From a virus, in the IMG/VR virus record IMGVR_UViG_3300042880_000852: a stretch of DNA of 64,000 bases, one strand, 5' to 3'. Below, piece after piece: positions 675 to 49,661 of this stretch; position 1 is the stretch's first letter; every line of letters begins with the position of its first letter. The notes under the pieces are model-generated. The model saw only the letters and a program-made list of their open reading frames with translations. It was not told the DNA's origin and did not search any database. The position numbers and the translations under genes were made by a program.

Positions 675-863
675 ATGATATTCAGAAAAGGAGACATATA
701 CAAAAATACCCATAGTGAGGGTCTTGTTTATATAACAGAAGTAAACAATAACAAATATAAATTGGAATGGACAAACACTGATGGAACAAAGGTAGAGAAA
801 TGGTATATACATGAATTCTTATCCATGTGCGTTAATAAAGGCTTTATGAAATTAGTATCTTAA
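675..863 (+). CDS. small protein, K-G-D-I-Y family (paralog of 2467..2778)
   Basis: N-terminus M-IFRKGDIYKN aligns with LIKKGDIYRN of ORF 2467. Confidence 0.45.
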   Translation: MIFRKGDIYKNTHSEGLVYITEVNNNKYKLEWTNTDGTKVEKWYIHEFLSMCVNKGFMKLVS

Positions 864-929
864 CTCTACTTTAATAGTTAATCAGGTTTATTTGATTATA
901 TACGATAAACTATCGTTTATTGTCACCTT

Positions 930-1500
930 AATTAACTAAATGTGTGGAAGTCATCGATCCGTACAATAGGCAACGCCCGCTGCCAAAGCCAGTAAAAATC
1001 TCGATCCTACTATAGTTGCATAGGCAAAATAGGCAAGGGTGTGGTAAATAGTGGTAGAAAGTGGTGAGATGTGTTACAAAAGTGCTGGGCAATACAAAAG
1101 GGAACTGACCCCTTCGCGAGCCTTCCCCTAAATTTCCTGACAAAATAACAATGATCCGTGGACTGACAGTATGACAGGCCAAGAAAAGCGTATGTACCAT
1201 AATCCCACTAAACTGGGATTCTGTTTCAAGAGCCATAACCCAGCTAAAATGGGTAGTGACAGACTGTCATGTTAGGAGCGACCATTCAGAGGACAGTTGT
1301 CGAAAACCCGTTGCCACCATTTGAAGTTGTAGGGCGGTGACGATAACGAGCTACGTTATACAATTCCCTGAGAACGAGGTAAAGGTTCACTGTTTGTTTA
1401 AGGTACAAACACAACTTATAAAAAACCTCCAACAACCATTACCTTACTAAGATTAGTTTTTATTAGACAGTGGTACATTCGGTCTCTCGGTTGGGCTACG
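930..1500. other. GC-rich (about 45%) non-coding island with multiple hairpins; candidate large structured RNA
   Basis: abrupt GC rise in a 30%-GC genome; no credible ORF; stems such as aatccca..tgggatt and gacagactgtc; the class (intron or large ncRNA) cannot be assigned by eye. Confidence 0.3.
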
Positions 1501-1571
1501 AGATATTATCATTCCACTGTTACCGTCTTTTAGATCATCAATCTTTGTGTTGATGTCTTTTTCTCTTCAAA

Positions 1572-1748
1572 TTATTTTTTAAACTTATCAATCATTGGTG
1601 GAACTTCATATTGTTCCACGTAGACATTGTTGGTACCCAAAGCTTCAGCTCTTGCGTAAGCGTATAACGCACTTGGACTCCAATATTTTTCACCATCTTT
1701 TGTTTTATAAGAGTAGATGGACTCTATGTTATTATCTTTCTCAATCAT
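1572..1748 (-). CDS. small hypothetical protein (58 aa; absent from the track because it is under 60 aa)
   Basis: reverse-strand ORF MIEKDNNIESIYSYKTKDGEKYW...; TATATTTG motif (1753-1760, minus) immediately upstream. Confidence 0.3.
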   Translation of the reverse strand: MIEKDNNIESIYSYKTKDGEKYWSPSALYAYARAEALGTNNVYVEQYEVPPMIDKFKK

Positions 1749-1784
1749 AGTACAAATATACTGTTTTTTATTTTATGAATCAAA

Positions 1785-3432: not shown

Positions 3433-3580
3433 ACCTGACATATTGACAGGGTGGGCTAGACCCCATGGCCACCCCGCTGGGGTATGGCCCCCAGCTACCC
3501 TGCCGGTATCCCCCCTCCCCTAGGGAGAGCCCCCAGGGCCACAAAGGGGGGCTCGGTTCCGTTTTCAGATCTCGGGTTTG
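3433..3580. other. GC-rich (about 60-65%) island with nested palindromes
   Basis: ctgggg-tatggc-ccccag hairpin; CCCTAGGG palindrome; gagccccc/ggggggctc stem; C-tracts; very atypical for this genome. Confidence 0.3.
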
Positions 3581-3585
3581 CCAAT

Positions 3586-3673
3586 AAAAATTTTCCGGGA
3601 AAAATTCTCCCTAAAAATCGAGCGTATCCCCCATGTAATTCTAAAACCCCATAAAAAATTTCCGGAAAAATTT
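3586..3673 (+). promoter_or_regulatory. pair of near-palindromic operator-like sites, AAAAATTTTCCGGGAAAAATT and AAAAAATTTCCGGAAAAATTT
   Basis: two near-identical 21-mers (3586-3606 and 3653-3673) centred on TTCCGGAA, about 67 bp apart, upstream of TATATTTG (3695-3702) and ATG 3707. Confidence 0.4.
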
Positions 3674-3706
3674 GTCTATAAATTTCCTCTTATGTATATT
3701 TGTCTT

Positions 3707-4270
3707 ATGGAACATAAAATTATAAACACAGGGGATTATTTGCTAATAGTAGATGAAGATGTATATTCTATCAAAAATGGTGACTATTGTTATGACCTAG
3801 TAACTAAATCTATAAGACAATGGATTTCTGAAGATAGAGCCTTTATAGAGTTAAGAAAAATCATATCTCATTTACCACTCAACAACTCACCAATACTTAA
3901 AGGTGTAGATTTATTACCACCACTTGAAGATGATATTATAGGAAAACCTTTAGATAACTATATAAGAGAAAGGCATAATCAAGATGAGTGTGTTGGTTTT
4001 ATAGATGGCTACAACAAAGCCAAAGAGAAATATAAGTACACAGAGGAGGATGTTATGAAAGCATATGATTTTGGTAGTAATGCTTTATTGGGTGTATCTA
4101 AAAATAGTCTTATCCAATCCCTCCAACAACCAAAGATGCCTGTTGGGTTTAAGTGTAAAACAGATTGTTGTTATAGGTGTATTGAGGGACTAGATGAATG
4201 TAATCCAAATTTATTAACAACAACCAACTCACAAGGTTTTACTCAATGGGTAGGAGAATGGATTTATTAA
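3707..4270 (+). CDS. hypothetical protein (start moved to the ATG after the TAnnTTTG motif)
   Basis: track ORF begins at TTG 3578 inside the repeat/GC region; ATG 3707 is in frame and preceded by TATATTTG. Confidence 0.5.
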   Translation: MEHKIINTGDYLLIVDEDVYSIKNGDYCYDLVTKSIRQWISEDRAFIELRKIISHLPLNNSPILKGVDLLPPLEDDIIGKPLDNYIRERHNQDECVGFIDGYNKAKEKYKYTEEDVMKAYDFGSNALLGVSKNSLIQSLQQPKMPVGFKCKTDCCYRCIEGLDECNPNLLTTTNSQGFTQWVGEWIY

Positions 4271-5760: not shown

Positions 5761-5918
5761 AAAATTTTTATAATTAATTAATCCCATGGGCATTCTCTGT
5801 GGGATTTTTTGTTTTATCTAATATGTGGAAATGGTTTTTGATGTCCGGAATCCGTCTTTTATCCCCCTACCCCCTTTTTTTATTTGGTCATTTAATTTAT
5901 TCTTCTTATATTTGTCTT

Positions 5919-6155
5919 ATGAAAACATTTGTTAAAATTTTATTGTTCGTTTCTTTTATTATGTCATTTATTTTTGTGGGTGGTGTGGTTGTGGATGGTC
6001 TGATGGCTTTGTTTCCCGTTTCTGCTAGTGAATGGTTTCCCGTTATCAGATTTATCTTGTGGATATTTACCTTTACCTTTAATTTAATTTTAACTTTTAT
6101 TTTATATTTTATATTGGTTTATATTATTTCTGTGGTAATGAGTTTGTTGATGTAA
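5919..6155 (+). CDS. small multi-pass membrane protein
   Basis: TATATTTG at 5907-5914, then ATG 5919; about three hydrophobic helices. Confidence 0.45.
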   Translation: MKTFVKILLFVSFIMSFIFVGGVVVDGLMALFPVSASEWFPVIRFILWIFTFTFNLILTFILYFILVYIISVVMSLLM

Positions 6156-14604: not shown

Positions 14605-15903
14605 TTAAACATTTCTACCGTTTTCGTAAATATATTTTAAAACAGGAAATCTAAGACTAATTCCACCTTCTTGATTTTTAGTTTCTTCAAAATATTGAAT
14701 ATTTACAGTTTTACCCACAATTTTGGATGAATCTTTATAGAATTCTTGACGTTGTTCGATACTAAAACCACTACCAACACCAACCTCAAATCCTTTATGC
14801 TCAATCACAATTTGTGATGTCATAGTTTCAGTAACTTCTTTACCGTTAATAATAATACGAATAGGTCCATAAGTAATTCCTTTAACTACATACTCAGCAT
14901 CATGGAATTTTTTAGCCTTTAAAAGGTCCTTACTACGTTTACCTTTGTAAGTAACATTTTTACGTACCATCACACCTTCCCATTTACCTTCTTCAGACTT
15001 ATCCATCCATTCTTGAAAGTGTTTTACGTCACGTATTTTTTCTTGTGGTAAAATTTCAAGAGTACAATTATTTTCATTACAAATAATAGTTTCACCTAAA
15101 ACTTTAAGACGTTCAGAAAGTTTACGAACACTTCTTTGGTTAGAAAATTCTTCTAAACTTAAACAATCAAATACTTTATACTTAACATTTTGAATGGTGT
15201 GATTTTTTCTACGAATTTCTTTCATAATAGATTGGAAATCTTCGTCACCATTTTCATCGACCATACAAATCTCACCGTCAAAAACAATATTACGAAGTCC
15301 AAGATTAGTAATCACTTCCTCAACTTTGTCTAGAGTATCAAATATTTTACCCTGACGAGAGTAAGAAGTTACTTGACCATTTTCCCCAACAACTGTAATA
15401 CAACGAACACCATCAAGTTTACGAGATACATACCACTCTTCAGTTTCAAAGTTAACCATTTCAGGTTCAAATTTTTCAGCGAGAGCAACATCAAATGTTG
15501 GTACAGTTCCAGGAACGGCTTTATTGATAAGACTTTCACCGACACGACATTTCAAATCTTTGTCAATTATATTAAAAATTAATTCTTTATGTTCAGAATT
15601 TAATTCTACAAATGAATTTACAAGTCCAATAGCATTATGACCTGTAACTTCGCGAGTACGTAACTCATCCAACAATTCAAAAATATTATATTCTTTTTCG
15701 GTTAAAAAAAGAAGTGTGTGTAACTTTTTGCAATTATCGGAAGTTATGTGAAACTGATAAAAAGGATTTGTGACATACATCACAAGTTTCTTCAAATCAG
15801 AATCGTGAAGATATTCTTTTAAAAGTTCTACTTTTTTGTTTGAGGAAGAGTCTGATTGTAACTTAGTAACTAATTCTTGAAGACGTGATAGAATATTTTT
15901 CAT
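14605..15903 (-). CDS. ATP-dependent DNA ligase
   Basis: nucleotidyltransferase motifs: I KLDGVR, III FDGEI, IV EGVMVRK, V DLLKAKKF; size comparable to T7/T4-type ligases. Confidence 0.8.
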   Translation of the reverse strand: MKNILSRLQELVTKLQSDSSSNKKVELLKEYLHDSDLKKLVMYVTNPFYQFHITSDNCKKLHTLLFLTEKEYNIFELLDELRTREVTGHNAIGLVNSFVELNSEHKELIFNIIDKDLKCRVGESLINKAVPGTVPTFDVALAEKFEPEMVNFETEEWYVSRKLDGVRCITVVGENGQVTSYSRQGKIFDTLDKVEEVITNLGLRNIVFDGEICMVDENGDEDFQSIMKEIRRKNHTIQNVKYKVFDCLSLEEFSNQRSVRKLSERLKVLGETIICNENNCTLEILPQEKIRDVKHFQEWMDKSEEGKWEGVMVRKNVTYKGKRSKDLLKAKKFHDAEYVVKGITYGPIRIIINGKEVTETMTSQIVIEHKGFEVGVGSGFSIEQRQEFYKDSSKIVGKTVNIQYFEETKNQEGGISLRFPVLKYIYENGRNV

Positions 15904-15949
15904 TCTACAAAGATACGATTATTAATTTAATATACAAATTTAATAAAAT

Positions 15950-16248: not shown

Positions 16249-17160
16249 TTAGACTAATAAAAGTCCGAATTTTTTACGATATTCTAACACAGAAAGTTCT
16301 TTTGCCTTAGATTCAAACATTAAATCTAAATCATAACCGTAAGTGTCAACTTCGTTTTGAATATAGTCATGGTGTGCACGAAAATTTTGTTCATCACGAG
16401 GTTCAGAAATATGAACAACTGGTGTTATATCAGAAGGCCAAGTTGCCACGGCAAGTTTTAAGGCATCTTCGATACTCATACCATCATTGTGACAGTTATG
16501 GTGATGATAGTCGAATACAATAGGTATTTTGGTGTTTTCATGGATATATAACAAGTCTTTAACAGTAAACATATTTGGCTTGTCATCATTCTCAACAGTC
16601 AAACGTTTTTTGGTGTTTTCACCAAGTAATTGGAAGTTATCAACCCAACGTTTCATCGCATCTTGTTTATTACCATAGGCACCACCAACGTGAATGTTAA
16701 TTTTAGAAAAAGGTGAAACAGGCAAACCTATCATATCCATAATTTCTGAATGTTTGTCTAATTCTGAAATTGTTTTTTTAACAACATTTTCACTAGGTGA
16801 GGCTAAAACATTAAATGGACCTGGGTGAAAACTTAAACGATGGTTATATTGTCTGACAAGGTTACCTAAACCATTTAATAAGTTTTTAATTTTACCAATG
16901 TCAGGTAAGTCATCAAAATTATATTCACTCGACCAAGGAAACATATCAGAACTCATGCGGTAAAGATTGATACCGTTTTTTTCATTCCATTTAATAACTT
17001 CAATAAGGTCCCGAACATTTTGTAAAGAAAGTTCTGACACATAATTAAGCCCTTTGGAGTCAAAAGTTTTTCGAATCATACCACGATTAGTCGTAATATT
17101 TTTCTCACCTAGGGTCATGTTGATACACGCGTAACCAATTTTCATAATACAAACATACAC
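16249..17160 (-). CDS. uvdE: UV DNA damage endonuclease (UvdE family)
   Basis: N-terminal IGYACIN..L......T.R motif, HPGPF and INIHVGG...VENDD TIM-barrel signatures of UVDE. Confidence 0.7.
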   Translation of the reverse strand: MYVCIMKIGYACINMTLGEKNITTNRGMIRKTFDSKGLNYVSELSLQNVRDLIEVIKWNEKNGINLYRMSSDMFPWSSEYNFDDLPDIGKIKNLLNGLGNLVRQYNHRLSFHPGPFNVLASPSENVVKKTISELDKHSEIMDMIGLPVSPFSKINIHVGGAYGNKQDAMKRWVDNFQLLGENTKKRLTVENDDKPNMFTVKDLLYIHENTKIPIVFDYHHHNCHNDGMSIEDALKLAVATWPSDITPVVHISEPRDEQNFRAHHDYIQNEVDTYGYDLDLMFESKAKELSVLEYRKKFGLLLV

Positions 17161-22262: not shown

Positions 22263-22498
22263 ACGAATGATAATTTTTTAAGTTCTTGTTTTGGTTTAAT
22301 ATTTTCGATAATTTTTATAACACCCATATTAATATCTCTTTTGAAAATTTCATACCCATACCAACCAGGGTGAACACTATTATTGGTGTTGTAAGTAAAA
22401 CCAGCTACTTCACCATCCAAACCGTAGTTTGGTTCAAAATAATGTTCGAAATAATAATTTGGATATCTTTCTGATAGTGGGTAAACTCTTACTTTCAT
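22259..22498 (-). CDS. hypothetical protein
   Basis: 79-aa ORF. Confidence 0.35.
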   Translation of the reverse strand: MKVRVYPLSERYPNYYFEHYFEPNYGLDGEVAGFTYNTNNSVHPGWYGYEIFKRDINMGVIKIIENIKPKQELKKLSFV

Positions 22499-22510
22499 AC
22501 CACAAAGATA

Positions 22511-27201: not shown

Positions 27202-29718
27202 TTACTTACCTTTATCTTCCTTTTTTTTAGAATTTTTAGGTTTTTTGATATCAACTTTAACATCTTCAATTTTGGTATTGTAAGAAATTGTGATTGTATC
27301 ACCAATACTAAGTTCACCCTCGAGTACTTTTTCAGAAATTGGGTCTTCTACGTACTTTTGGATTGCTCTATTTAAAGGACGTGCTCCATATTTTTCGTCA
27401 TAACCTTTTTCAACCAAATACTCTTTTAAAGTATCTTCAATTTTAAGGACATAACCCATTTCTTTAACACGACCAACTACTTCACTTAAAGGAATATCGA
27501 CAATTCTCTTAATATTTTCTTTGTCAAGTGATTTGAAAACAATAACATCGTCGATACGATTTAAAAATTCAGGTGAAAAGGCCTTCTTTAATGAATCTTG
27601 TATCACACCTTCAGCTATTTCATCGTGAGCATTATTTTTAGATTGAGTACCAAAACCCACACCAGTTCCAAACTCTTGAAGTTTACGAGCTCCTACGTTT
27701 GAAGTCATAATGATAAGACAGTTTTTAAAATCAACTTTACGACCTAAACCATCACTTAAATGACCATCATCAAATACTTGAAGTAAAACATTAAAAACAT
27801 CTGGATGTGCTTTTTCAACTTCATCTAAAAGAATTACCGAAAATGGTTTTCTTCTAATTTTTTCAGTCAACTGACCACCTTCTTCATACCCAACATAACC
27901 TGGAGGAGCCCCGATTAATTTAGATACCGTGTGTTTTTCCATATACTCAGACATGTCAACACGAATTAAAGATTCAGGAGAACCAAAAATACTTTCAGCT
28001 AACATTTTAGCTAAGTGAGTTTTACCTACACCTGTTGGACCTAGAAACATAAAAGAACCTATCGGTTTCTTTTGGTTTTTAATACCTACACGATTACGTT
28101 TAATTGCTTTAGTAATTTTATCGATAGCATTATCTTGACCAATAACTTTAGTCTTAATTTCCTTATCCATGTTACGGAGTTTTTCATTTTCACTTTGTGA
28201 AACTTTAGTAACAGGAATACCTGTAACCATAGAAACAACTTTGGCAACATCATCTTCATTAACAGTAGGTCTTACTCTATCAAGATTTTTGGCCCACTCA
28301 TTAGTGGAATGTTCTAAATCATCTTGTAAATGTTTTTCTTCATCACGAAGTTTTGCTGCGTCTTCATAACGTTGTTGTTTTACAACTTCAATTTTTTGAC
28401 GACCTACTTCAGTTATTTTTTCTTCAAGGTCAATAATTTCTTGTGGGGGTTTAATATGAACTTGCATTCTAGCCCCAACCTCATCTAAAATATCTATAGC
28501 TTTATCAGGTTGTTCACGGTCACTAATATAACGGTCAGCTAAATTAACACAAGCCTCAATAGCTTCAGTTGTATAATTCACCTTGTGATGGTCTTCATAC
28601 TTATTCTTAATGTTGTTAAGAATTATAAGTGTTTCATCTTTAGAAGGTGGATCAACCACTACCATTTGAAAACGTCTAGCCAAAGCTCCATCTTTTTCAA
28701 TATTCTCACGATATTCGTCAAGGGTTGTTGCCCCAATACATTGAACTTCTCCACGAGCCAAAGCTGGTTTTAAAATATTAGAAGCGTCTAGAGAACCTGA
28801 AGCATTACCCGCTCCAACCATTGTGTGAATTTCATCAATAAAAAGAATAACATCATCGGCTTTTTCAAGTTCTTGCATGATACCTTTCATTCTTTCTTCA
28901 AATTGACCCCGATATTTGGTTCCAGCAACTAAAGATGCTAAATCCAAACTTACAACACGTTTGTCAAAAAGAATACGAGGACATTTCCTCTCAACAATTT
29001 TAAGAGCTAACCCCTCAACGATTGCGGTTTTACCCACACCAGGTTCACCAATAAGAATTGGATTGTTCTTTTTACGTCTTGAAAGAATTTGTGACACTCT
29101 CTCAATCTCATCTTCCCTTCCAATAATTGGGTCTATCTGACCTTCAGAGGCAAGTTTTGTAATGTCTCGACCAAAATTGTCAAGTACTGGGGTTGTTGAT
29201 TTACCTTGAGCAGCTTTTTTAGCTTTTTTACCCAAGTCGTCGATTTCTTCAAAGTCTCCTGTCATATTCATTATTTTTTGTTTCTTTAAATGTAATAAAG
29301 TTTCTTTAAAAGTTCTATAGGTAATACCCTGATTTCCTAAAACTTTTGTACCGTCTAACGATTTATTTTTTAAAATAGATAAAAACAAATGTTCCACACC
29401 AATAGAATCATCACGTAATTTATCAGATTCAAGTTCAGCGGAACTGATAGCGTTTTTTGATGACTCACTAAAAGGTACTATTTTTAGTTCTACAATATTA
29501 GGATTTTTTATTTTAAATCTCAAGTAACCTTCTAATTTTTCCATCAAATCGTCAACATCAGAACCCATGGCCTCTAACACCTCAATTACTTGATTATCAT
29601 CAAGGTTTAAAATAGAAAGTAATAGATGTTCGGGTTTTATTTTGTTTTCACCAAATCTTACTGATTCTTTAAAAGCCTCTTTCATTATAGCTTTTAAATT
29701 AGGCGTCATTTTTTTCAT
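27202..29718 (-). CDS. ClpC/ClpA-like double-ring AAA+ unfoldase (Clp ATPase)
   Basis: Clp N-domain repeats; Walker A in AAA-1 GEPGVGKTA and in AAA-2 GPTGVGKT; sensor motifs; short UVR-like linker; start chosen at MKKMTPNL (29718). Confidence 0.85.
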   Translation of the reverse strand: MKKMTPNLKAIMKEAFKESVRFGENKIKPEHLLLSILNLDDNQVIEVLEAMGSDVDDLMEKLEGYLRFKIKNPNIVELKIVPFSESSKNAISSAELESDKLRDDSIGVEHLFLSILKNKSLDGTKVLGNQGITYRTFKETLLHLKKQKIMNMTGDFEEIDDLGKKAKKAAQGKSTTPVLDNFGRDITKLASEGQIDPIIGREDEIERVSQILSRRKKNNPILIGEPGVGKTAIVEGLALKIVERKCPRILFDKRVVSLDLASLVAGTKYRGQFEERMKGIMQELEKADDVILFIDEIHTMVGAGNASGSLDASNILKPALARGEVQCIGATTLDEYRENIEKDGALARRFQMVVVDPPSKDETLIILNNIKNKYEDHHKVNYTTEAIEACVNLADRYISDREQPDKAIDILDEVGARMQVHIKPPQEIIDLEEKITEVGRQKIEVVKQQRYEDAAKLRDEEKHLQDDLEHSTNEWAKNLDRVRPTVNEDDVAKVVSMVTGIPVTKVSQSENEKLRNMDKEIKTKVIGQDNAIDKITKAIKRNRVGIKNQKKPIGSFMFLGPTGVGKTHLAKMLAESIFGSPESLIRVDMSEYMEKHTVSKLIGAPPGYVGYEEGGQLTEKIRRKPFSVILLDEVEKAHPDVFNVLLQVFDDGHLSDGLGRKVDFKNCLIIMTSNVGARKLQEFGTGVGFGTQSKNNAHDEIAEGVIQDSLKKAFSPEFLNRIDDVIVFKSLDKENIKRIVDIPLSEVVGRVKEMGYVLKIEDTLKEYLVEKGYDEKYGARPLNRAIQKYVEDPISEKVLEGELSIGDTITISYNTKIEDVKVDIKKPKNSKKKEDKGK

Positions 29719-29828
29719 TTTCCTAACTTTATTTAAATGAAATATATTTAAAAATAAGGGAAAGAAAAGTTTACAGAACAATTCCCTTTTATTGGTAAAA
29801 TTATTAGTTTTAAATAAAAATTAGACAT

Positions 29829-33952: not shown

Positions 33953-34549
33953 TTACAATAATCTGTTTCTTTTGATATTACGATTAACCTTACTACAAAG
34001 TGGCTGTAAATTTGTGTAATGAAATAATTGTAATAACTCATCTTTAGTCTTTACCGAAGATAAGGGTGTGATATAATCTATATCCCAACCGTAATTTAAC
34101 TCACCGTTATATAAACCGTAATTATCCCAAGACATCCAATCTTCAAATTTAGATTCTAAATGTCTTTTAAAATCTTCAAATGAACAACCTAAAATTTGAT
34201 TTGCTTTTACTTGTGAAGTGTATTTTTTTCTTTTAAGACTTTGTTTAACCTGATTTTTTATTTTAATGGATAATTTAAACAAGGGATTATTTTTTCTTTT
34301 TAGTTTTTGATACTCTACACTATTTTTTACTATTTTTTCTTTATTACTTGAATAATACTTTTCCCAGTAATTTGAATTATTGTCCTTCCATAACTTATTA
34401 TATTCAGTCAACTTATCTTTATTTATTTTTTTATAAGTTTTTTGGTAATTTTTTCTTTTTTCTTTATATTCAGGGTCATTTTTTTTACTAAGATAATGTT
34501 GTTTTCTTTTTTCTAAAATATCTTTTTTATTTCTTTCGTAGTAAGTCAT
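33953..34549 (-). CDS. HNH-endonuclease-like protein, probably degenerate (paralog of 60612..61544)
   Basis: shares the lysine-rich repeat region and MSWDNYG...NLQPL with ORF 60612, but the HVDH catalytic site is replaced by DIDY. Confidence 0.45.
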   Translation of the reverse strand: MTYYERNKKDILEKRKQHYLSKKNDPEYKEKRKNYQKTYKKINKDKLTEYNKLWKDNNSNYWEKYYSSNKEKIVKNSVEYQKLKRKNNPLFKLSIKIKNQVKQSLKRKKYTSQVKANQILGCSFEDFKRHLESKFEDWMSWDNYGLYNGELNYGWDIDYITPLSSVKTKDELLQLFHYTNLQPLCSKVNRNIKRNRLL

Positions 34550-47735: not shown

Positions 47736-49661
47736 ATGGCCGACAATAAAGATTTAACAGTATATCAGAAATTATTTTACCTTTTTGGTCAAAATAAAAA
47801 ACCTGAAAGAACTACCCCAAAATATAGTTTTGGTGACGGTGATTTAATCACCATGCAATCAAAACAAGATTACGATAAACAAAAATTAGAATTACAACAA
47901 AAAAGTTATCTTGAGTCGCAATGGCAAAGAGTAGATAATGAACTTTATCAAAAAGCTGTTTACTATGAGACCTCAAGAATTGCTTCATATATGGATTATG
48001 AGGCTATGGAATTTACACCTGAAATTTCTGCCGCTTTAGATATTATGGCAGAAGAATCTTGTACACCAAGTGAACAAGGTAAAGTACTTACCATACAATC
48101 AAACTCTAAAAGAGTTAAAAATGTTTTAGAAGATTTATTTTACAACGTAGTTGATATTCAAACTAATTTACCAATGTGGACTCGTAATACATGTAAGTAT
48201 GGTGATAATTTTGTTTTCTTAAAAATTGATAATAAAAGAGGTATTATAGGTTCTTCACAATTAACTAATATTGAAATAGAACGTAAAGAAGAGGGTATGT
48301 TTCCTACACAAAAAGAAGGTAACACAACACCTATGCAAGAACAAAAGAAAAAACAAGTTATATTTCATTGGCGTGAAAAGGCCATGGATTTTAACCCATG
48401 GGAGATTGCACATTTTCGTTTATTAGGTGATGATAGACGTTTACCTTACGGTACTTCGGTGTTGGAAAAGGCTAGACGTATTTGGAAACAAATGTTATTA
48501 TCTGAAGATGCGATGTTAGTTTATCGTGTTGTTAGAGCACCTGAAAGACGTGTATTTAAAATTTATGTCGGTAACATTGATGATAAAGATGTTGATGCTT
48601 ATGTACAAAAAGTAGCTAATAAATTTAAAAGACAACAAATTGTTGACCAAAAAACAGGACAGGTTGATTTACGTTACAACACATTAGCTGTAGATCAAGA
48701 TTATTTCGTTCCTGTTCGTGACCCTAACGCACCAAACCCAATAGATACTTTGGCGGGTGCTAGTAATTTAGATCAAATTGCTGACATTGAGTATATTCAA
48801 AAGAAATTATTAACAGCGCTTAGAGTACCTAAAGCATTTTTAGGTTTTGATGAATCTCCTGGTGACGGTAAAAATTTAGCTTTATTAGATATTCGTTTCG
48901 CTAGAACAATTAATAGAATTCAACAATCTATGATTCAAGAATTGAATAAATTAGCTATTATTCATTTATTTATTTTAGGGTTTACTGATGATTTAAATAA
49001 TTTTACTTTAAATCTTACTAACCCATCTACTCAGGGTGAAATGTTAAAAGTTGAACAATGGAAAGAAAAAGTTCTTCTTTATAAAGATTTAGTGACTCAA
49101 GTTGATGGTGGTATAGCTCCTTCATCACATACTTGGGCTAAGAAAAATATTTTTAATTGGACCGATGAGGAAATTAAAACCGACCTTGAACAACAAATGA
49201 TGGAGAGAGCTGCATCTAAAGAATTAGAAAACACACCTGAAGTTGTTAAGAAAACAGGTTTCTTTGATAGGGTTACTAAACTTTATGGTGAAATTGGTGG
49301 ACCTACTCCTGCAGCTGGAGCTGAAGGTGGTGGGGTTGAAGAAGGTGGAGCTGAAGCTGGCGGTGGATTTGGTGGCGGAGGAGGATTTGGTGGTGGTGGC
49401 CTTGAACTAGGTGGTGGTGAAGAAATTGGTGGTGGAGCTGAAGTTGGTGAAGAAGGTGGTGAAGAAGGTGGTGGGGCTGAAACCGGATTTGGTGAAAGTT
49501 TTCGTTATAAAGACAAATCAATTATCGATAAGTTATTAATGGAGGGTAGAAGAAAAAATGAGGATATTATGATGATGACCGAAGGAATTAAAAATTTAAT
49601 AGGTGAAGAAGAAGAAAATAGTGACAAAGATTTAGATGACTTTAATTTATTACAAGATTAA
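47736..49661 (+). CDS. portal protein (gp20-like) with Gly/Glu-rich low-complexity C-terminal insertion
   Basis: position after terL; loose similarity to the T4 gp20 N-terminal region; (G)n-E tract encoded at about 49300-49500. Confidence 0.65.
   Translation: MADNKDLTVYQKLFYLFGQNKKPERTTPKYSFGDGDLITMQSKQDYDKQKLELQQKSYLESQWQRVDNELYQKAVYYETSRIASYMDYEAMEFTPEISAALDIMAEESCTPSEQGKVLTIQSNSKRVKNVLEDLFYNVVDIQTNLPMWTRNTCKYGDNFVFLKIDNKRGIIGSSQLTNIEIERKEEGMFPTQKEGNTTPMQEQKKKQVIFHWREKAMDFNPWEIAHFRLLGDDRRLPYGTSVLEKARRIWKQMLLSEDAMLVYRVVRAPERRVFKIYVGNIDDKDVDAYVQKVANKFKRQQIVDQKTGQVDLRYNTLAVDQDYFVPVRDPNAPNPIDTLAGASNLDQIADIEYIQKKLLTALRVPKAFLGFDESPGDGKNLALLDIRFARTINRIQQSMIQELNKLAIIHLFILGFTDDLNNFTLNLTNPSTQGEMLKVEQWKEKVLLYKDLVTQVDGGIAPSSHTWAKKNIFNWTDEEIKTDLEQQMMERAASKELENTPEVVKKTGFFDRVTKLYGEIGGPTPAAGAEGGGVEEGGAEAGGGFGGGGGFGGGGLELGGGEEIGGGAEVGEEGGEEGGGAETGFGESFRYKDKSIIDKLLMEGRRKNEDIMMMTEGIKNLIGEEEENSDKDLDDFNLLQD

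Follow-up and report, generated by a model that had tools for sequence, protein, structure and literature searches.

The question raised by positions 930 to 1,500 of IMG/VR virus record IMGVR_UViG_3300042880_000852 is whether an island rich in guanine plus cytosine (GC), lying near the start of an AT-rich viral sequence, encodes a functional RNA. The window (the whole stretch of DNA analyzed, 64,000 nucleotides [nt]) had been described in an initial annotation in which the island was given as about 45% GC against a background of about 30%, and was proposed to be a large structured RNA, either intron-like or a large non-coding RNA (ncRNA). Measured GC content, 43-46% for the island against ~30%, agreed with that description, with values in 200-nt windows of 0.40-0.46 over 901-1500 and 0.25-0.33 in the flanks, and the island was among the few 300-nt windows of the 64-kb sequence to exceed 0.42. 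The proposal of a large structured RNA was borne out by compensatory base-pair changes over 15 distinct homologous sequences, and we conclude with a probability of roughly 0.8-0.9 that 1529..922 (minus strand) is a real, conserved and highly structured ncRNA gene of ~600 nt. The RNA is not translated and is read on the minus strand, the functional strand having been left unstated in the initial annotation.

The bounds of the conserved core, 922..1529 (minus strand, 608 nt), were taken from an alignment of 22 homologous sequences; RNA nt n corresponds to window coordinate 1530-n, and this numbering is used below. Core length in the homologs ranged from 552 to 608 nt. The core begins with AAGACGGUAACAGUGGAAUGA (also read as AAGACGGTAACAGTGG) and ends in ...UUCCACACAUUUAGUUAAUUAAGGU (..TTAAGGT), and is present in one copy in the window (one covariance-model match). 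The bounds in the initial annotation, 930-1500, were drawn slightly too narrowly; the conserved core is preceded by a variable leader hairpin at 1533..1557.

Homologs, designated L followed by a number, were retrieved using the adjacent Band_7 gene and then a neighboring gene for a protein of 58 amino acids (aa) as handles, together with one metagenome motif scan. The element was recovered in more than 40 metagenomic contigs of related phages and was found only adjoining a gene of 57-60 aa, always immediately downstream of it and on the same strand (the minus strand of the window). The metagenome scan, conducted with an 18-mer, produced 4 true matches and 10 that were due to chance and lay in GC-rich contigs from soil. 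When IMG/VR was scanned with four motif patterns, L011 was the only contig recovered; all remaining pattern matches were rejected as coding regions of GC-rich phages (e.g. a tape-measure gene) or as chance 16-mers. Two scans of GTDB genomes returned zero matches and thus no bacterial copy, no DNA similar to the island was found in GenBank phages, and nhmmer searches of the more distant Band_7 loci L012-L040 found no RNA homolog, though several of these loci carried other GC islands. The RNA family is absent from Rfam and, in the collections searched, is confined to one lineage of large uncultured phages.

Conservation was uneven along the RNA. Nt 1-75 were 93-99% identical in all variants and nt 221-284 and 330-435 were 80-100% identical, and nt 96-220 were only 55-63% identical. 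This divergent segment was informative for covariation. A covariance model of nt 75-224 (R1) recovered all homologs, and because its realignment left 1-nt register offsets, the alignment was curated by hand, each row being verified as a true sequence and N used as padding. In the hand-curated alignment of nt 96-220 (15 distinct sequences, six helices), 94.9% of 469 cells paired, compared to 31-47% with the partners slid, and 23 of the 32 pairs showed a double-sided change; the covariation score of 0.523 (0.165 when shuffled) was reached by none of 500 shuffles. As this alignment had been fitted to the helices, the count was repeated on the raw MAFFT alignment, where compensatory change was still heavy: 80.9% of cells paired versus 34-48% slid, 18 pairs were changed on both sides, and the covariation score (0.320, against 0.164 shuffled) was again reached by 0/500.

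The transcribed strand was determined from wobble pairs. Read on the minus strand, the variable helices contained 25 G-U against 7 A-C pairs and the conserved helices 127 against 18, with 17 of those 18 A-C pairs arising from one H10 column pair that is one column off, so that the effective number is ~1. All one-sided changes were U/C opposite G or G/A opposite U; these keep a wobble pair on the minus strand and would be A-C mismatches on the plus strand, which identifies the minus strand as the RNA. The RNAalifold consensus energy was -117 kcal/mol on the minus strand versus -100 kcal/mol on the plus strand.

The structure comprises at least 12 helices, including two pseudoknots, of which at least eight helices covary. 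All of the features that follow are on the minus strand. The 5' domain is closed by H1 (RNA 10-16 with 57-63; region 1467..1520), which is invariant and encloses hairpin H2 (27-31 with 41-45); H2 lies within the nearly invariant 5' 75 nt and changes from CUCG/CGAG to CUUG/CAAG in L083. An H-type pseudoknot at 1392..1429 is formed by hairpin H3 (120-125 with 133-138, three compensated versions) and PKB, in which the first five bases of the H3 loop (126-130) pair with nt 101-105 in four versions (GAGGU/ACCUU, GCGGU/ACCGU, GGGCU/GGCCU and GAGCC/GGCUU). The RNA tail, nt 599-606, is also complementary to the H3 loop (alternative pairing PKA). Hairpin H4 (1370..1390; 140-145 with 155-160) has a conserved loop core, UUACC, on six different compensated stems, all six of its pairs changing on both sides. 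The second pseudoknot, at 1313..1369, consists of H7 (161-164 with 196-199, three versions), which encloses hairpin H5 (172-176 with 182-186, four stem versions around an invariant UAGCU loop) and is crossed by H6 (189-195 with 211-217, at least five versions). The number of pseudoknots follows from PKB crossing H3 and H6 crossing H7. Other partners for ACCUG (UUAGG at nt 97-101 and AAGGU at nt 85-89) were rejected, being broken in L011 and L054, whereas H7 is kept. L054 carries 35 extra nt inside the H5 loop (1160-1200 of that contig).

Downstream of this module the long helix H8 (1251..1309; RNA 221-224 with 276-279 and 229-238 with 262-272) contains a conserved internal hairpin and is almost invariant in sequence; in L077, C is replaced by U across from G, which makes a wobble pair only if the minus strand is read. 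The sequence gacagactgtc (1259-1269), previously cited as a stem-loop, is really the 3' strand of a long-range helix. H8 is followed by a variable insertion site (1203..1246, between nt 284 and 327) that holds a 36-nt optional hairpin in this window and is empty in most homologs; the aatccca..tgggatt stem-loop (1201-1220) offered as evidence in the initial annotation is this optional insert and not a conserved element. A third hairpin named there, acccagc..gggt, is broken in L064, L054 and L061. In L002 and L051 the variable site contains a 216-aa open reading frame (ORF) with a 24-nt duplication. The ORF lies on the strand of the RNA (L002 7047-7740, equivalent to an insertion at window ~1246), and the duplication, TGACAGTYTGTCACTACCCATTTT, is a copy of the H8 3' strand. 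The encoded protein is an orphan: no Pfam or PHROG match was found, and among 5.8 billion proteins only its own cluster (100% identity) was recovered.

The central conserved domain (1095..1189) contains H9, H10 and H11 together with an invariant 34-nt block, GGGGAAGGCUCGCGAAGGGGUCAGUUCCCUUUUG. H9 (341-349 with 402-410) is G-U rich, with U/C alternation opposite G at three positions; H10 (352-355 with 391-394) changes from CCUG/CAGG to UAUG/CAUA in L083; and H11 (414-421 with 428-435) is invariant. A G-poor tract follows (1040..1094, nt 436-490), C/A/U-rich, 55-77 nt long with 2-5 G and differing in length by up to 22 nt among homologs, which is probably an unstructured internal linker. The 3' domain (922..1039) carries the invariant blocks CCCUUG, GGCAGCGGGCGUUGCCUAUU and UUCCACACAUUUAG, and the invariant hairpin H12 (546-551 with 556-561) is within GGCAGCGGGCGUUGCCUAUU. 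In L054 the sequence after the linker (1440-1592 of that contig) departs from the 3' domain of the family, as either a real variant or a chimeric contig end. Outside the nt 96-220 module, H2 and H10 each show one compensated change, both in L083, and H1, H8, H11 and H12 are invariant and so are uninformative on covariation. An all-against-all covariation scan of the 3' domain was dominated by the relatedness of two allele types and was not interpretable.

The module at nt 96-220 (window 1434..1310) also differs from its surroundings. Between the window and L001 it is only 62% identical, with 15 gap positions, although identity in the flanking genes is 98.9% (58-aa gene) and 99.6% (Band_7). The RNA is a mosaic, recombining locus. 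In L067, the version of the module found in the window is joined to the 5' junction of another lineage.

Exchange of this module between otherwise identical phages could also occur in an element that acts as DNA, such as a replication origin or a packaging or recombination site with iterons or cruciforms, and a GC island within an AT-rich genome could be foreign DNA of higher GC content. Three copies of ACCAC at 10-nt spacing (window 1075..1046) would suit an iteron, though these are not conserved in L060, L076 or L054. The compensatory changes, the strand-specific G-U bias and the promoter in front all point to RNA, and no similar DNA was found in GTDB genomes, in GenBank phages or elsewhere in the window; an origin from host DNA was rejected on the two GTDB scans. 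We regard both forms of this explanation as very improbable. A partner for a diversity-generating retroelement, a retron or a repeat was looked for in the window and rejected, as no second copy or A-mutated repeat was present.

The alternative that the island is protein-coding after all, through a frame of ~90 aa at 1200..928 (minus strand) or a recoded gene, has in its favor that 9 of 10 full-length variants keep the frame free of stops over 91-122 codons and that its ATG falls in the invariant UUAUGGUACAC. The openness is explained by the G-poor tract, which contains too few G residues (2-5 in 55-77 nt) to form TAG or TGA, and all three minus-strand frames are unusually open here. Substitutions between the window and L060 were spread evenly over codon positions 1, 2 and 3 (25/25/27), as were variable columns (36/47/41); the frame is shifted by 11- and 23-nt indels in L011, L077 and L076, it is interrupted by two in-frame stops in L083, and its stop codon is lost in L064, L068 and L083. 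The only ORFs listed for the island are short, and stop-codon reassignment cannot rescue one, because all three stop types (TAA, TAG and TGA) occur in each of the six frames of the island. The verdict of the initial annotation, that there is no plausible ORF and that the predicted frame is spurious, is thus upheld, and a coding function is hardly credible.

The RNA is flanked by convergent genes at 675..863 (plus strand) and 1748..1572 (minus strand), both of which carry the sequence TAnnTTTG-N4-ATG, in agreement with the remark in the initial annotation that the island sits between two small genes with their own promoter motif. TAnnTTTG is the -7 element of Bacteroidetes sigma-A promoters. 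The 58-aa gene and its promoter occupy 1572..1760 on the minus strand (gene 1748..1572; promoter TATATTTGTACTATG, 1760..1746), and a variable 5' leader hairpin, GACAUCAAC..AUUGAUGAUC, lies at 1533..1557 (minus strand) between the 58-aa stop codon and RNA nt 1. Four arrangements were observed upstream of nt 1 among the homologs. In the first, a TTATCTTTG promoter is followed by the leader hairpin, with the promoter at -48/-49 or -68 to -73; in the second (L071-L080) the TTATCTTTG promoter is just 16 nt upstream of nt 1; in the third (the L062-L070/L083 lineage) the promoter is absent and the stop codon of the small gene overlaps nt 1; and in the fourth, that of this window, a 31-nt deletion has taken the promoter away. 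The missing 31-nt segment, which would lie at 1568/1569, is kept with its TTATCTTTG promoter in the 99%-identical L005 and in L001/L011, and the promoter of the 58-aa gene is the only one in the window able to drive the RNA. We infer from these arrangements that in most lineages the host RNA polymerase transcribes the RNA from a dedicated promoter of the Bacteroidetes sigma-A type (TAnnTTTG) a short distance before it. Where this promoter is missing, as in this window, transcription would start at the promoter of the neighboring 58-aa gene and read through into the RNA.

These arrangements bear on the possibility that the element is a long structured 3' untranslated region (UTR) of the 58-aa gene that acts in cis, by stabilizing, localizing or regulating the messenger RNA (mRNA) or by terminating convergent transcription. 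Such a role would account for the invariable position of the RNA directly downstream of the gene and on the same strand, for the overlap of the stop codon with nt 1 in L062-L070/L083 and the deleted promoter in this window, and for the lack of a terminator between the gene and the RNA. Set against these are the dedicated promoter found between gene and RNA in most lineages, which in L071-L080 stands 16 nt before nt 1 and so implies that the RNA is made separately from the mRNA, and the 5' 75 nt of the RNA, which are better conserved than the 58-aa gene. To our knowledge, 600 nt with two pseudoknots and long invariant single-stranded blocks also far exceed the needs of known 3'-UTR stabilizers. 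A 3' UTR is unlikely on balance, and a free-standing particle acting in trans is given somewhat better than even odds over it. A riboswitch or other 5' leader was rejected because no same-strand gene lies downstream, the next gene being convergent (675..863, plus strand; a 161-aa gene in L001).

Several points weigh against the conclusion that the locus is a structured ncRNA gene. The ends of the RNA were placed from conservation and promoter position alone, and a conserved terminator was looked for among the homologs and not found. Roughly one third of lineages are without the RNA's own promoter, which also fits a 3'-UTR role. The energy of single-sequence folding was no better than that of shuffled sequences (minimum free energy z-scores of +0.40 on the plus strand and -0.09 on the minus strand), and the initial description of the island as hairpin-dense is accordingly at chance level for a single sequence. 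The best covariation numbers come from the alignment that was fitted by hand to the helices under test. Because the family spans a single phage lineage, with one IMG/VR contig and no GTDB match, only a few deep allele types contribute to the covariation, and the cell counts are inflated by relatedness. Finally, the proposed fold is partial, the 3' third being represented by just two allele types.

Known RNA families were searched with Rfam release 15, both for the whole window at gathering thresholds, with no match, and at E≤10. At the latter threshold positions 800-1700 gave only two meaningless weak matches, none to ROOL, GOLLD, OLE, introns, RNase P or transfer-messenger RNA (tmRNA), and six homolog loci gave nothing within the element. 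No transfer RNA (tRNA) or tmRNA was found by ARAGORN in the 64-kb window, and no model match was obtained for tmRNA, RNase P RNA, 6S RNA or signal recognition particle RNA (Rfam, with ARAGORN for tmRNA). The searches proposed in the initial annotation (group I, group II, GOLLD, ROOL, OLE, RNase P and tmRNA) thus placed the element in no family.

Of the two forms proposed there, intron-like or large ncRNA, the ncRNA stands and the intron falls, with no Rfam group I or II match and differing flanks. In size the element could be a group I or group II self-splicing intron that lacks an ORF, or the decayed remnant of such an intron, and the peripheral site that accepts an ORF in L002 and L051 recalls the intron loops that take up homing-endonuclease genes. 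Phage introns are likewise structured RNAs of a few hundred nt with pseudoknots that can form GC islands in AT-rich genomes. The models for Intron_gpI (RF00028) and for group II introns (RF00029, D1-D4), however, matched neither the window nor six homologs at E≤10. Neither exons nor an interrupted gene are present, the element being bounded upstream by a stop codon or promoter and downstream by the 3' end of the convergent gene, with flanks that vary among homologs. No P7 or domain V core is present; no hairpin resembles domain V (H12 has 6 bp and a loop of GGGC), and the RNA begins with AAGACGG in place of the GUGYG of group II introns. Group II introns usually carry a reverse-transcriptase ORF in domain IV; the inserted 216-aa ORF is without a homing-endonuclease, other nuclease or reverse-transcriptase domain in Pfam or PHROG. 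An intron origin is scarcely tenable.

A large ribozyme of a new class, which might cut itself from the co-transcript at nt 1 or perform another reaction, would be suggested by the size, the pseudoknots and the long invariant unpaired blocks such as GGCUCGCGAAGGGGUCAG. The 5' end, AAGACGGUAACAGUGG, is invariant in 22 of 22 sequences whether a promoter, the leader hairpin or coding sequence lies upstream, and such constancy is the expected look of a defined processing site. Helix H1 and tertiary contacts would explain the conservation of the 5' end equally well, and no Rfam ribozyme was matched in the window or the six homolog loci; a ribozyme is accordingly considered quite improbable.

The window derives from a phage, as indicated by the presence of T4-type portal and large terminase genes, and one near-identical relative contig spans 298.8 kb. 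Judged by the portal protein, the nearest relatives in culture, Microcystis phage Mel-JY01 and Flavobacterium phage immuto, are only ~40% identical. TAnnTTTG was found exactly 4 nt before ATG at 10 sites in the window versus 2.0 expected, a number reached in 0 of 100 shuffles (663-677, 1746-1760, 2286-2300, 2787-2801, 3695-3709, 5907-5921, 15901-15915, 17143-17157, 22496-22510 and 34007-34021). On the basis of this motif the host is probably a member of the Bacteroidota. The 10 sites have the form of Bacteroidetes-type promoters, from which leaderless or near-leaderless mRNAs would be expected for many small early-region genes.

The 58-aa protein was not found to belong to a Pfam or PHROG family, its AlphaFold model (beta-beta-alpha-beta; mean predicted local distance difference test score 77) had no PDB match at E≤0.001, and neither a membrane nor a known RNA-binding fold was found. 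In the 89%-identical lineage (L001, L003 and L010) an extra convergent gene of 161 aa, absent from the window, is located between the RNA and a 62-aa gene (L001 7423-7908); its sole match was weak and sub-threshold, to Tox-ART-HYD1 (ADP-ribosyltransferase, E=0.004). Non-coding DNA rich in GC also forms a second island, at 3435-3570 (and 3575-3680), with up to 56% GC. Its core, CCCCAGCTACCCYGCYGGTATCCCCCCTCCCCTRGGGAGAGCCCCCAGGGCCACAAAGGGGGGCTC, is nearly invariant (83-100% conserved in relatives), and GC-rich hairpins were predicted there with little covariation and no Rfam match. Two palindromes, TTTTCCGGGAAAAA and ATTTCCGGAAAAAT, come after the island, shortly before the promoter at 3695, and the region may represent another small RNA plus an operator region. 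At 49290-49480, inside the portal gene (47736..49661), a GC-rich and strongly G-skewed segment codes for a low-complexity tail rich in Gly and Glu (GGGFGGGGGFGGGG...), close to the C-terminus of this T4-type protein. The phage also encodes a full-length ClpB/Hsp104-type double AAA+ chaperone at 27202-29781 (minus strand), with Clp_N, AAA, AAA_lid_9, AAA_2 and ClpB_D2-small domains.

It is very rare for a bacterial or phage RNA to exceed 500 nt and have an elaborate conserved fold (the examples are ribosomal RNA, group II introns, OLE, GOLLD, ROOL and HEARO), and for each of these unusual biochemistry has been found or is anticipated. An additional, unrelated family from another host phylum would establish that large phages have evolved such RNAs repeatedly. 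In the RNA described here the promoter is defined and the gene partner fixed, natural variants have already yielded a partial structure, and at ~560-610 nt it would be a compact new subject for cryo-electron microscopy and for the role of such RNAs in infection. Its invariant 5' domain, set against a module swapped between 99%-identical phages, provides an additional evolutionary signal that can be tested. We envisage a compact multi-domain particle made up of the invariant 5' domain, the pseudoknot module (nt 96-220) with fixed structure and hypervariable sequence, the conserved central domain, a floppy G-poor linker and the 3' domain, which would act in trans as a folded RNA during infection.

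The resemblance to ROOL and GOLLD suggested in the initial annotation holds as an analogy, in size, phage context, pseudoknots and a G-poor linker, and fails as a claim of membership, with no model match and no tRNA nearby. ROOL (RF03087) has a mean length of 581 nt, is phage-borne, and has three pseudoknots and a disordered internal linker at nt 414-464 (Weinberg et al. 2017, PMC5737381; cryo-electron microscopy in PMC12286853), and nanocages made solely of RNA have recently been demonstrated for both ROOL and GOLLD (PMC12286853). The present RNA (552-608 nt) is similar to ROOL in length and in being phage-encoded, in an apparently multistem architecture with two covariation-supported pseudoknots, in having few strictly required proteins known, and in a probably unstructured linker about two thirds of the way along (the G-poor tract, nt 436-490). 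It differs in that RF03087 was not matched even at E≤10 in the window or six homologs, and in that no terminal helix was found to pair the 5' end with the 3' end. Proximity to tRNA islands is common for ROOL, and there is no tRNA gene in the 64-kb window; ROOL is from rumen samples and Lactobacillales, whereas this phage probably infects Bacteroidota. GOLLD (RF01998) is, like the present RNA, a large ornate RNA of phages and prophages in environmental (lake or marine) metagenomes. It too has one part more conserved and one more variable, and both RNAs accommodate inserted genes, which are tRNAs in the linker of GOLLD and an ORF in the variable site of the present RNA. GOLLD is usually longer than 800 nt with a conserved 3' half, whereas here the RNA is ~600 nt and the 5' 75 nt and center are the most conserved, with neither an RF01998 match nor a tRNA neighborhood.

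OLE (RF01071) is also ~600 nt, ornate and tied to a small partner gene (oapA), but it is a cellular RNA of anaerobic Firmicutes that binds membrane proteins, it resembles the present RNA neither in sequence nor by model search, and the 58-aa neighbor here has neither a membrane nor a known RNA-binding fold. OLE dimerizes via a palindromic hairpin loop that covaries among GGCC, GAUC and AGCU (PMC12286853). The H5 loop of the present RNA, an invariant UAGCU that contains a palindrome, is by analogy the sole hint of self-assembly. Oligomerization or catalysis by the RNA is doubtful at present. With similarly low confidence, the RNA might be the founding member of a new ornate class of phage RNA, either an RNA-only self-assembling machine or a new large ribozyme, in which the nt 96-220 module would be a recombining hypervariable specificity element swapped in an arms race with the host, and in which self-assembly could proceed through the invariant palindromic UAGCU loop and/or the complementarity of the H3 loop and 3' tail. 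The similarities to ROOL, GOLLD and OLE are to be read as analogies and not as evidence of homology or oligomerization; an architectural or binding RNA of the ROOL/GOLLD/OLE type, present as an RNA-only or ribonucleoprotein particle and possibly self-associating, is favored over a ribozyme, an intron or a cis-regulator.

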